64,000 bases of DNA, from contig OZ024763.1 in the NCBI GenBank assembly GCA_964016885.1, positions 20,832,001-20,896,000 of the forward strand. The letters are read 5' to 3'. Each line of letters opens with the position of its first letter. Position 1 is the stretch's first letter. Shown in pieces: positions 34,801 to 52,800 of this stretch. Origin of the DNA: Eledone cirrhosa. Lineage: Eukaryota. The translations under genes were made by a program, and so were the position numbers. The notes beneath the pieces were generated by a model. It saw only the letters and a program-made list of their open reading frames with translations, was not told the DNA's origin and did not search any database.

Positions 34801-37800
34801 CTTTTCAATCACTCAGATAGCCTAGGGGCTTGCATCTTGCTTACATACAATCCTGCAGTCTACCGAGTGCCTTTTATTGTGGCCTGAAAAAGTTCTAGTC
34901 CTGCAGGAGCCATTTCTATATTAAATTTTTGTTATATATATATGTATATATATAAAATATTAAACAAATAATGAATAAACAATTCCTTATATTAAACAAA
35001 AAAAGTTCATTATTTAACGATCGTTTCTAGGATATATATGTGTTATAATTGGTATGCATATTCTTGACTCTGTATACCGTTTATCTTTCACCGAAAGTGG
35101 TTTTTCATTACATCTCTTCTTTCCATGATATCCGGAATACATTGAGTTCTTCATACGGATTGGACACTACCGTAAACTCTTGGTAGATTTATCTACATAT
35201 GTATATATATATATATATATGTATATATATATATATATATATATATATATATATATATATATATATATATATATATATATATATATATATATATATAAAA
35301 CAATGGGTGTTAGCGGAGTAACATCAAAACCTGCCCAGGACATATCATATGTTGAACACAAGAACACATAATAGCTGTCTGATGAGGTTGTATCTATTAC
35401 ATAATAGATACCACTGAAATATATATAACAGTAACAAAATAAGGAACAAAATGATGGAAGATTCAAGCCCACTGACTTCTTTATATATATTTAAAGGTGT
35501 ATGTGTCTGTGTGTGTGTGTTGCTGCCTAAATACCTTTAATTGGATGTAGGGCTTCATCTGTACAAAGAGCTAAACATATATGTAGGGCTGTGCTCAAGA
35601 TATACTACAACTTGGTATATTTTAAGAACGTATGTAAGCGAGATGAAAGTCACTGGCCCACCTGAGAGGTCAGTAGTTTCAAACTAAGTACTGACTTGGG
35701 GTGTGAAGTCTCCCGTCCAACCCTTGATAACTGAGAAAACGGATGTTAAATGATGCTGATGCTGATGATGAGGATGTTGAAACAAGAATAGTTAAGATAA
35801 CATGAACAATTTGCAGGACAGATTTTACAGGTAAAGCTAACGAGCAGGAGAGCCAGAGGCAGAAGTACTGGAGAGTAGCAATGTGGGTAGGGTAATATCC
35901 ATTTGGGGATCCAACCAAATCATTTGGAGGAGGTGGGTGCTTCTGATAGGTCTCTCTGGAAGGAAGACGTGTCTGAGGATTATGACTTAATGATCATCTC
36001 ATGAAGAAGAAATAGAAGAAAAAGACAAAAGAAAGAAGAAGAAGACAAAAGAAAGAAGAAGAAGAAAAGAAGAAAGGAGAAAAAGAAGAAGTAGAAGAAC
36101 AAGAAGAACAAACAGAAGAACAAAAAGAAGCAGAAGAAGAAGAAAAGAAGAAAAAGAAGAAGTAGAAGAACAAGAAGAACAAACAGAAGAACAAAAAGAA
36201 GCAGAAGAAGAAAAAGAAGAAGCAGCAGCAGAAGAAGAAGACAAGAAGAATAAGAAAAAGAAAGAAGAAGAGGAAGAAAGAGGACAGAAGAAGAAGAAGA
36301 ATTAAAAGACAGAAGAAAACAGAAAAAGAACGAAAAGAAGATTTCACCAAGAAAAATAATTAGAAAAAGATATACAGTAATTAAGACACTCTTATTAAAT
36401 ATGTGAGATTTATTTATCAGCTTTCGAGAAGCAGTGTTGTAATAGGATGGTCTGAATGTCTAATTTGGCTTTCTCTCTCTGCAGCGGCTGCATACGCCGT
36501 AATGTCCCTGCCACATGCATACCAAACAAGTCCTCGGGGTCATGTCGTTCCTTCAGGTTGAAAATCCTCCAGGCTTCCTTGAGGAAGTCGTCTTTCAGGT
36601 CCATATCATCCGACCGACGCTGTTTTTTCGTTGCCGTCGGGTAACCCAGAGCCGAACCGTTCATGTTCATATTGATATTGCCTCCTACTACTCCCCCACC
36701 ACCTCCTCCCCCTCCCCCGCCTCCGATGTTGTTGTCGTCTGACATTAACTCAAGGGAGCTTATCACTGGGTTTGCATCCAGCCGTTTCGTTCTGCTGGAG
36801 ATTTGTTCGAAATTAAGCGTCTCGTCTTCGACGAAATGTTCCGAGGACCAGGTTATAGAATCGTTGCCTACATCGGAATCGTCTGATAAAGAATAAGTCT
36901 GGAAATATATTCAAGAAAAAAAAAAAAAAGAAAAAGAACAAAAAACATATCAAGAATGAAAGATATATAATTTCTTATGGTATAAAAATCAATAATTTAT
37001 AGTATGAAAAATAGAGATAAATGTGAAAGGAAATGAAATGAGACAGTTAGGTCATGTGTCGAGGAAGGATCTGGGTCTCTTGCCAGTTGGTTTTGCTTAT
37101 AAAATATGTCCAGCGATTCTTTCCTGAGACATTCTAACCACATGTCCATAGTATTGGAGCTGTGATCTCTCAATTCGGAGAAGTAGCAGCTCGGAGTGAC
37201 TCTGATCTCTGAGCTACAAATCTGTCCAGTGATTCTTTCCTGAGACATTTCAACCACATGTCCATAGTATTGGAGCTGTGATCTCTCAATTTGGAGAAGT
37301 AGCAGCTCGGAGTGACTCTGATCTCTGAGCTACAAATCTGTCCAGTGATTCTTTCCTGAGACATTCTAACCACATATCCATAGTGTCTGAGCTGTGATCT
37401 CTCAATTCAGAGAAGTAGCAGCTCTACTTGGTGCGACTCTCTGATCTCCAAGCTATAAATCTGTCCAGCAATTCTTTCCTGAGACATTCTAACCACATGC
37501 TCATAATATCAGAGCTGTGATCTCTCAATTTAGAGAAGTAGCAGCTCTACTTGGAGTGACTCCCCAGCGATTCTTTCCTGAGACATTCTAACCACATGTC
37601 CATAGTATCAGAGAAGTAGCAGCTCTACCTAGTGTGACTCTCTGATCGCCAAGCTACAAATCTGTCCAGTGATTCTTTCCTGAGACATTCTAACCACATA
37701 GTATCAGAGCTGTGATCTCTCAATTTAGAGAAGTAGCAGCTCTACTTGGAGTGACTCTCTGATTCTCCAAGCTACGCACTCTATCGAGTAACATTACTCC

Positions 37801-49800: not shown

Positions 49801-52800
49801 TACATAGTCAGAACCGTCTTCAGCACGACTTTCTGACTTCCGACACTCTCGGGCGTATGTGGTACGGATGTTTTTCCATCTCATTTTGATGTGTCTGTCT
49901 AAAATGAAATTAAAAAAAAATATATGTATACTTGCTGTGGCAATAAAGTCTTTAGAATAACCCTTTAAATGAAAAGGCACAACATATTGAAACTAAAATT
50001 TATTTATCCTGCAAAACATAATCTCCATTGAATGCAATAACATCTTTACAGTGCTTATGCAAAGCATTTAACTCTTTATAGAACCGTTCCTTCGGCAATT
50101 GTCACGATTCATCTACCACCTCTTCAAATGAAGCAAAAACAAATTTTTAAAGATGTTGCCTTAATAACTTGAACACCCAAATTATGTCAGGACTATAGGG
50201 TGATTGTTTGATCATCGCCTCTCTTCTCCCCTGAAAAATTTTTTTGTGGATTGAGCAGTTTGATGTGTGTATTATAAACTCACAAGAATGACAACAAAAT
50301 AATCATGTATTGGCCTGTGACAAAATACAGCATTCATACAGAATATCATATGTGTACAACAAAGTTCAAATTCCAACTAATATTAACTACATTTACTGTT
50401 ATATATGACACACAGCCTACTATTCTAAAGACTTTATTGTCACACGAAGTATATATATACACACCAAAACTAGTGATTCCAAAGGTTGAGTGAGGAGATG
50501 GGACTGTACTGTCTGTTTTTTATGGTGCAATGTTCCCCAAGGACATTGTCAGCTGGGCAAAACAAAACACACCTGTAGCCACAACAACAACAGAAACATC
50601 TTAGTGACATAAGGTGTAAAACCAGTAATTCTCAACATGGGCCTGAGAAATTTTAAAATAGGTGGGATTTGAAATTCTATTTTTTGTTTTGTTTTTTCAC
50701 TAGCGTAAAATTATGAAAACACAAACTGCTTTCAGTGCCGGATTTAGGACAAATGAGGTCCTGTGCTAGTTAAGTCATGAAGCCCCTTACTTGGGCCCTG
50801 TAGGAGGTTTTCGCAGGAAGATGGGCCCCCTGACCAACGGGGCCTTGTGCCTAAGTAGACCTAAGCACAATGGTAAATCTGGCACTGACTGCTTTACTTT
50901 ATTTTTAAAGGTAAATAATTAAGAAATTATTTAAATAAAAGCCTTGGAAGTTCAACTTGACAAGCTGATAAATAGACACCAGGAGCTGTGTAGTTATTTG
51001 TCTTCTTCTTCGCCCACTTATTCCTGAGAAGGTTGTGGGGCAGAGTCCTCAAACACTCCTTCCAGCAGGTCCTGTCAGAAGCAACCATCTCGAACTGATC
51101 AGGCTGGATTCCCAAGCGAGACCAGCCAATCTTATGGATGTTATCCAACCATCTTGCTCTCCTGCCGGTCGGTTTTGCCCATAAAATCTGTCCAGCGATT
51201 CATTCCCGAGATATTCTAACCACATGTCCATAGTATCAGAGCTGTGATCTCTCAATTCGGAGAACTAGCGGCTCTACCTGGAGTGACTCTCTGATCTCCG
51301 AGCTACGCACTTTATCAAATATCGTTACTCTATAGACCCTTCGGAGGAATCTCATTTCAACTGCTTGTATTCGCAATCGTATTCTTTCGGTCATTAGTCA
51401 GGGTTTATATTTTCTACATTTTGGTTTTGTAAATAAAATATATTCCCTAGAATTTTTATTTGTGGGCTTAAGCAATTATTTTTGACACACAAAAAAAAAA
51501 AAAAAAATATATACCACAGGGAAGAAAAGGTTTGAAAAACACGAGGGAAGCGAAAACGGCAAAACAAAGCCGAAATGATTGGAAATATCTTAACTGGAAA
51601 TCGAACCTGCAATCACTGCGATCGATTTGCCAGAGAAAACAAGTTATGACAACTCCGTTAAAACAACACAACACACAGTATATTCACACATACATACATA
51701 CACGGTAAATAAAAATAAGTGATTTAGTGTGTAAAGTCTATATATATATATATATATATATATATATATATATATATATATATATATATATTTATAAATG
51801 ACCGCAGATTGTTTTTTCGTTTATATATATTTACCTGTATAGGGACGCCCAGTTCGATCACAGCCGAGTTTAGTGCTTAGTTCTTTCATTAGCCCATCTC
51901 TTACATCTCTGCGGAAATAGTCGGCATGACTATGATCCCACAGGCAGGAATGAGCTGTAAAACCGACAAGGACGGAGAAAAACAAACAATATTATAGGAG
52001 ATAGATGGATAGACAGACAAACAGACAGGCAGATAGATATAGTTTGGTCGGTAGGTAGGTAGGTAGATCGATCGATCGATCGATCGATAGATAGATATAG
52101 ATAGGTAGGTAGATAGATAGATCGATCGATCGATCGATGGAGATAGATAGATATAGGTAGGTAGGTAGATAGATAGAGATAGATAGCTAGGTAGATGGCT
52201 GTCATTCGAATTATAAAACGGATAGTTAGATAGACAGACAGACAGGTAAATATATACGTAAGCTAGACATGTAAGAAGACAAATCGAGAGAGAGATAGAA
52301 AAGGTTATAAGATGTCTTATTTCGGAATACAAAGTTAATTGTACGGAATAAGAAAAACAGAGAGAGAGAAAGAGCGAGACAGAGGCATCAAACTATAAAC
52401 AGAAAAGTAACAACACATTAATAATAAGAAATATAAATCACGGAAGCTAAAACAGGAGGATCGAACAAAAAGCCAAGCAAGGAATCAACCTAATACGCAC
52501 CTTCAAAATAGTCAATGAGTTCGTTTTCTTTCTTTTTATCCCACGTTACACGGTAGTCAGCCATTTTAACATTAGACAATAATAAAGGGGAGGAGAAAGA
52601 GTAGAAGGAAGAGTGGAGTTATGTATTAGTTATGTCTGGCATTACAGAAATCAGCAAGTGCTTTTTTTTCTAAGTGTTAAAAGGACGTGTTATTTGTTTG
52701 GTTGGTTTGTGTATGTATTTATATCTATATATTTATTATTTGTGCGGAGATTAGAAACTTTTTCTTGTCTTTTATTTATAACTGTTGCTGTTTGATCGAT

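Follow-up and report, generated by a model that had tools for sequence, protein, structure and literature searches.

Genes that lie inside an intron of another gene have been tabulated in Drosophila melanogaster, where 71% are antisense to their host, 72.5% of the same-strand guests have a single exon, and the same-strand guests that do bear introns have a median of one, with 50 such hosts tabulated (PMC3814207). The fly figure agrees with the remark, made in a first-pass annotation of the DNA described here, that most nested genes are antisense; in mammals, with all gene types counted, the two orientations are about equally common (PMC11694760). Nested genes that bear introns and share the strand of their host are expected to be removed by selection, because they should disrupt the splicing of the host (PMC3814207). 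The window analysed here, a stretch of 64,000 nucleotides of the octopus Eledone cirrhosa (assembly GCA_964016885.1, contig OZ024763.1, positions 20,832,001 to 20,896,000), holds a gene of this kind: a seven-exon gene with two MADF domains, the guest, lies within intron 6 of DNAJC11, the host, and on the same strand.

Compared with the Drosophila same-strand nested genes, the octopus guest is alike in that the whole gene sits in the longest intron of its host, on the same strand and with no shared coding sequence (PMC3814207); it differs in having six introns, whereas the fly guests mostly have one exon or one intron, and in being conserved, whereas the fly guests tend to be young and fast-evolving (PMC3814207, PMC5174743). 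Human tandem pairs such as KTI12 in TXNDC12 and CHML in OPN3 also have a same-strand intronic guest with interference in host splicing as the expected cost, but their aberrant host transcripts occur among expressed sequence tags, whereas none were seen here in one run (PMC3192792). As for the splicing route proposed below, it resembles the nested splicing (intrasplicing) of long introns, for example in dystrophin, in which inner pieces of the intron leave first and the outer intron last (PMC4829307); there, however, the inner sites are unannotated and often non-canonical, whereas in the octopus they would belong to genuine introns of another gene. Regarding the protein, Drosophila Stonewall and Brickwall likewise have a MADF domain near the N-terminus, a disordered-looking linker and a short helical C-terminal motif (PMC5982830), but the guest has two MADF domains by internal duplication and a tail that gives no Pfam BESS match. 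Finally, its direct Octopus orthologues, LOC115224823 and LOC106879707, are annotated, and a search mostly without subscription papers found no literature on them or on the locus.

The host gene and its sixth intron

DNAJC11, a mitochondrial protein with a housekeeping role, is encoded on the minus strand by 17 coding exons, 13 inside the window and four just past its right end. The exon build gives one open frame of 562 amino acids without internal stop, with GT-AG at 16/16 introns, and the protein is 94.7% identical to that of Octopus sinensis and 91.5% to that of Argonauta. All parts of it were found once and in order by tblastn with three cephalopod DNAJC11 proteins over the window and its flanks; in the genome-wide searches, which covered 3.0 Gb, 15 of the 19 matches fell here at high identity, the other four being unrelated J-domains (37-43%), and DNAJC11 is a single locus. 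A search of PDB sequences returned J-domain matches only. Intron 6 measures 31,128 bp, against a median of 1,075 and a maximum of 5,589 bp for the remaining 15, and is indeed, as first reported, far longer than the others; it splits the beta-barrel domain near position 50 of 227.

63424..63491, minus strand: DNAJC11 coding exon 5 (tblastn, exon build; joined to exon 6 in run X4, see below)
63038..63215, minus strand: DNAJC11 coding exon 6 (phase-0 end inside the beta-barrel; Pfam PF22774 positions 2-50 of 227)
31910..63037, minus strand: DNAJC11 intron 6, 31,128 bp, which holds the guest (exon build; skipped by an X4 contig)
31842..31909, minus strand: DNAJC11 coding exon 7 (tblastn, exon build; the exon-6 contig finishes with its first 28 nt)
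16801..31019, minus strand: DNAJC11 coding exons 8-17, overall span (exon build, as for each of the following)
31019-30955, minus strand: DNAJC11 coding exon 8
30192-30071, minus strand: DNAJC11 coding exon 9
29937-29855, minus strand: DNAJC11 coding exon 10
28931-28815, minus strand: DNAJC11 coding exon 11
28155-28000, minus strand: DNAJC11 coding exon 12
22410-22341, minus strand: DNAJC11 coding exon 13
20932-20823, minus strand: DNAJC11 coding exon 14
19729-19636, minus strand: DNAJC11 coding exon 15
17661-17532, minus strand: DNAJC11 coding exon 16
16850-16801, minus strand: DNAJC11 coding exon 17

The guest gene

The entire coding sequence of the guest (52564-36410) lies within this single host intron (63037-31910). 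It spans 16,155 bp on the minus strand in seven exons, with one frame and GT-AG at 6/6 introns, so that the exon build bears out the earlier description of an intact same-strand gene of 601 amino acids. This length applies with the end of exon 6 at 38103, while an end at 38142 gives 588; the 13 residues exclusive to the longer form are conserved (13/13 identical in O. bimaculoides, 8/13 in a distant relative), and for this reason the 601-residue form is favoured and the shorter one was set aside. All six genome matches of the guest, in a search with a stricter first look, fall here, and it is a single locus; a search of PDB sequences gave glycine-linker matches only. It has its own ATG and, as had been noted from the letters, no in-frame acceptor just upstream: the nearest AG (52636) is 71 nt away, and entry through it would stop the host frame after one codon.

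52501..52564, minus strand: guest exon 1, coding part from the ATG, start of MADF 1 (tblastn, exon build)
51835..51954, minus strand: guest exon 2, 120 nt, MADF 1 (Pfam PF10545, 26.6 bits)
49666..49898, minus strand: guest exon 3, end of MADF 1 (PF10545, 32.1 bits; joined to exon 4 in X4)
48422..48989, minus strand: guest exon 4, acidic linker and start of MADF 2 (exon build; X4 contig)
39243..39362, minus strand: guest exon 5, 120 nt, MADF 2 (PF10545, 27.4 bits)
38103..38314, minus strand: guest exon 6, end of MADF 2, alternative donor at 38142 (PF10545, 37.6 bits)
36410..36898, minus strand: guest exon 7, coding part, glycine run and conserved BESS-like helical tail (exon build, homology)

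The glycine-codon run of exon 7 is at 36690-36725, and three O. sinensis RefSeq isoforms differ only in its length; this variation seems to be noise from alleles or annotation and not a product of splicing.

Splicing of both genes

None of the four runs consulted (X1-X4) is recorded as RNA, and X4 was taken as such only because its contigs skip introns. In a 1,428-nt contig of X4, guest exon 4 (48422-48989) and exon 3 (49666-49898) abut at their predicted borders, through which contigs of X1-X3 pass unbroken; the rest of the contig, 504 and 123 letters, fits exons 5-7 and exon 2 by arithmetic only. A 651-nt contig of X4 carries DNAJC11 exons 5 and 6, with intron 5 skipped, followed by 28 letters that match the beginning of exon 7 exactly, and therefore the host was spliced across the guest. 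Spliced sequence is thus present across two junctions predicted from the letters, exon 3-exon 4 of the guest and exon 6-exon 7 of the host: the guest is expressed and spliced, and the host message is spliced across it. Contig depth was 21.8 for the guest and 13.7 for the host, values not used to rank expression, and the contigs of both genes come from one sample, not necessarily from the same cells.

The contigs also bear on the suggestion of the first-pass annotation that the locus could couple the two genes: host transcripts would be spliced into guest exons or stop at the guest poly(A) site, DNAJC11 would be truncated or fused, and its output would be tied to the guest. Human tandem nested genes do cause exonization and cryptic polyadenylation (PMC3192792), and at this locus a join of host exon 6 to guest exon 4 or 7 would keep the frame, as would one of guest exon 3 or 6 to host exon 7. 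No second partner was seen at the host exon-6 donor, however; the one X4 contig there (1/1) continues unbroken into host exon 7, with the limit that contigs drop rare forms. Four of the six possible host-to-guest joins would shift the frame and meet a stop within 21 codons. Chimeric splicing thus found no support in this one run, where rare or tissue-specific chimeras are possible, and coupling is considered unlikely.

Orthologues and the order in Octopus vulgaris

The guest is 86.7% identical to LOC115224823 of O. sinensis and 88.2% to LOC106879707 of O. bimaculoides, both 'uncharacterized' in RefSeq, which lists the guest as a separate gene in the two species. Full-length relatives in other contigs, with 356/601 identities, are probably from more distant cephalopods; one carries a short in-frame lead that is not DNAJC11. 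Host and guest have consecutive accessions in O. bimaculoides and share their longest contig both there and in O. sinensis, and these two cases indicate proximity and not nesting. A whole-length word search with the O. sinensis guest protein retrieved only itself among 8,000 crowded candidates, and its silence on Argonauta is uninformative.

The nesting itself reappears in O. vulgaris, whose protein CAI9741449.1 (P0011; 1,044 amino acids) consists of DNAJC11 1-208, guest 1-483 and DNAJC11 209-562; from this order it follows that the guest lies in the same intron and orientation in an independent assembly, and the nesting is, on this comparison, shared with O. vulgaris and not a misassembly. 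The opposite view, that of a misassembly or a split DNAJC11 duplicate with the MADF gene only apparently inside, could appeal to an intron rich in repeats, at least 11.2 kb of which is satellite, tandem repeat or long interspersed nuclear element (LINE) fragment, and to the fact that no DNA read or contig was seen to span it. It is nearly refuted: each host exon occurs once and in order, the 224 kb searched hold 0 N, and the O. vulgaris model has the same order. As the guest spans 16,155 bp and the repeats at least 11.2 kb, the length of intron 6 is only partly due to the guest.

CAI9741449.1 is also the one model that could be taken for a coupled product. It is labelled 'hypothetical predicted', lacks the conserved tail of the guest and cuts the host beta-barrel in two, and among 188 proteins compared it alone mixes host and guest sequence; for these reasons the fusion is most likely a prediction artefact, as expected from a predictor unable to nest genes. 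The model bears the DNAJC11 name in UniRef, a likely misannotation.

Likely promoter and candidate poly(A) signals

The CpG observed/expected ratio, computed after masking tandem repeats in 196 windows, has a median of 0.525, rises up to 1.64 at the 5' end of the host and is 0.88-1.15 at the 5' end of the guest. In octopus, gene bodies are methylated and promoters mostly are not (PMC9476566), and together with this the CpG patch suggests that the guest has its own promoter region. A second peak, at 61-62.7 kb, was rejected as a promoter, being a high-copy repeat.

51001..53500, strand not assigned: CpG-retaining patch over the guest 5' end (observed/expected 0.88-1.15; 52520-52760 unique in the genome)
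34873..34878, minus strand: second AATAAA, candidate poly(A) signal, 1.5 kb downstream of the guest stop (sequence match)

The first AATAAA (36414-36409) overlaps the guest stop codon and is followed by U-rich sequence; if used, it would leave the guest with almost no 3' untranslated region. Some host transcripts are likely lost at the guest poly(A) signals.

CPNE1/RBM12 is reportedly a pair in which a host promoter or upstream non-coding exon is borrowed. The octopus guest might likewise use the host promoter or an upstream non-coding exon, entering by way of the AG at 52636, which lies 71 nt before its ATG and could act as an acceptor; the guest 5' end was not seen, and the O. vulgaris model joins host exon 6 directly to the guest ATG. 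Yet this AG scores 1.0, at about the 90th percentile of 1,907 background AGs in the intron, the host contig is unbroken across 376 nt upstream of exon 5 and across the donors of exons 5 and 6, and the CpG patch is located at the guest, all of which makes a borrowed promoter quite improbable.

Splice-site strength and the proposed route

Splice sites were scored with a crude matrix built from 22 real sites. By this measure the donor of host intron 6 is the lowest of 22 donors (1.4), against 5.7-12.2 for the guest donors, and the acceptor of host exon 7 is the second lowest (2.2), against 9.0-14.2 for four guest acceptors; the weakness of both host sites is a further point that coupling can claim. 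Upstream of every guest acceptor, at 546-9,059 nt, stands a donor of the guest itself; from the host donor to the first of these acceptors the distance is 11 kb.

The data show the layout, both reading frames, a single junction of the guest, the host splice that spans it and an identical gene order in O. vulgaris. The favoured reading, with a probability of about 0.6, is that DNAJC11 intron 6 holds, on its own strand, a complete double-MADF gene of seven exons, that both genes are spliced with the host skipping the guest, and that the guest, likely transcribed separately from a promoter of its own, encodes a likely DNA-binding regulator. The guest would be transcribed from a promoter of its own near 52.6 kb; in read-through from the host promoter, each guest acceptor would be taken by its nearest upstream guest donor, which is 0.5-9 kb away and outscores the host donor, and the guest introns would be cut out inside the host intron by nested splicing, leaving the weak host donor for host exon 7, with the first guest exon lacking a good acceptor and the last lacking a needed donor. 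Rare wrong joins between host and guest, mostly out of frame, would be destroyed, and the guest poly(A) signal would be read through often enough, some loss of host message being a tolerated cost and not a switch. If the guest sites pair with each other, the apparent need for the host to skip six free acceptors is removed.

Several points weigh against this reading. Nested splicing at the guest is inferred, not observed; direct contig evidence covers 1/6 guest junctions, no start site or 3' end was seen, and the data are contigs only, from one sample of one study and from a run unrecorded as RNA, while the DNA control X1 gave 0 contigs on host exons 5-6 and hence no information there. Both contigs end near junctions, 28 nt into host exon 7 and, by arithmetic, 3 nt into guest exon 1, and these ends could be alternative joins or merely variants. 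The splice matrix comes from 22 sites only, three other host donors are nearly as low (2.0-2.8), two guest acceptors are also weak, and 2/6 host-to-guest joins are in frame. Finally, the CpG signal is unspecific, since values as high occur in guest exon 7 (1.04) and, at 61.0-62.7 kb, in the high-copy repeat (1.07).

The same data would also fit an independent guest with the host intron removed as one block, the guest sites being ignored on transcripts that start at the host promoter, or two genes mostly active in different cells or at different times. Block removal is consistent with all observations, and the nested pairs of flies do diverge in expression (PMC5174743), but four guest acceptors (9.0-14.2) precede and outscore that of exon 7 (2.2), so an extra mechanism would be needed; activity in different cells or times sits poorly with the presence of both genes in one sample, though maybe not in the same cells. 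This account is possible but doubtful.

MADF domains and the BESS-like tail

The first-pass annotation had described the guest as a double-MADF/BESS protein, of which the MADF part holds, whereas the BESS part fails with Pfam and survives only as a resemblance. All four MADF exons scanned (4/4), each taken singly, exceed the curated cut-off of Pfam PF10545, giving two MADF domains, and the O. sinensis orthologue has two PF10545 stretches at 132.8 bits. At 55% identity over 112 residues, and with a shared layout of three exons of which the middle one is 120 nt long and the phases are 1, 1, 0, the two guest units are read as an internal duplication. When the first 50 of 136 domain stretches were placed in a tree, the units formed one group (100/97), each including the distant relative, and the duplication would therefore predate the split from that relative.

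As for the tail, Pfam BESS (PF02944) gave no match up to E=10 in the last guest exon or in the O. sinensis orthologue, and a BESS profile scan of the genome gave 20 weak matches, with the guest locus not among them; the missing Pfam match goes part of the way towards the refutation that the first-pass annotation had itself proposed. The 69-residue tail is nevertheless identical to Octopus at 67/69 positions and aligns in register with the BESS stretch of the relative P0036; nine of the 30 relatives picked for tail sharing match BESS at E<=0.1 (best 1.4e-11), and in an Atlas comparison the first match was a BESS cluster at 0.89, which is a lead only. The tail is BESS-like, possibly through homology, without formal Pfam membership. 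MADF domains and tail are 92-97% identical to Octopus and the spacer 65-72%, and the MADF domains are still 71-79% identical in the distant relative; conservation of domains and tail is far above that of the spacer, as would be expected under selection. Binding of DNA or chromatin is inferred from the MADF family, and the guest likely encodes a DNA-binding regulator.

MADF genes are likely PIF-derived and have expanded patchily in molluscs (PMC10027918). A Harbinger link, which had been raised for the domain, found no support at the locus: DDE_Tnp_4 has four matches genome-wide, 0/4 on the guest contig, and the long open reading frames of intron 6 with a family match are reverse transcriptases only. 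The guest itself is an old, single-copy gene. Two further MADF exons (L024 1444-1632 and L026 1423-1686; G000:C22, ~19.97 Mb) are mutually similar, in opposite orientation and about 9 kb apart. The closest named relative outside cephalopods is a 284-residue, single-MADF protein of the hagfish Myxine glutinosa, 48% identical and with the same C-terminal motif; the grouping, which concerns proteins P0022, P0030, P0031 and P0039, is weakly supported (91/67). Such a patchy spread could reflect a transposon-borne ancestor or many losses.

Other content of intron 6 and the neighbouring gene

39609..45998, strand not assigned: 31-bp satellite, 206 copies, in guest intron 4 (same-family arrays on other contigs)
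46450..47871, plus strand: LINE-type reverse-transcriptase fragment, then PHD finger, in guest intron 4 (family match)
54811..56760, minus strand: LINE-type reverse-transcriptase fragment between host exon 6 and the guest (family match)

Pieces related to the reverse transcriptase/PHD element at 46450-47871 occur at 511-1104 and 25379-26140. A 160-bp repeat with 3.6 copies (53208-53771) lies just upstream of the guest CpG patch, an array of 76-81 bp with about 18 copies is at 58770-60226 in intron 6, and a CpG-rich high-copy repeat at 61200-62250 has 571 genome candidates, 91-96% among the 40 scored; the end of this repeat is possibly Helitron-like. Downstream of DNAJC11, on the opposite strand, an exon of a CPLANE2/RSG1-like small GTPase gene is at 10814-11068 (plus strand; E=3.7e-9 to 7q3e_D).

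Significance

A bolder scheme, which we regard as a long shot, is that the nesting is as old as the double-MADF gene and was kept across coleoids, and that the weak host splice sites form a tissue-regulated switch to an in-frame fusion (guest exon 4 or 7) or to an end at the guest poly(A) signal, the guest introns being removed elsewhere inside the host intron. If true, the intron-6 switch would replace the mitochondrial co-chaperone with a truncated protein or with one in which J-domain and MADF parts are fused.

In conclusion, intron-bearing guests on the strand of their host form an uncommon class that is already known, and a guest with six introns in a single-copy housekeeping host stands at its far end; as there is no evidence of coupling, the locus is a good example and not a new mechanism. 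The nesting explains the wrong public model CAI9741449.1, most likely an artificial fusion. Occurring in at least two octopod lineages, such a guest in such a host is a strong exception to the expectation that selection removes pairs of this kind, and the guest and DNAJC11 are a natural test case for how the spliceosome pairs sites across a second gene.

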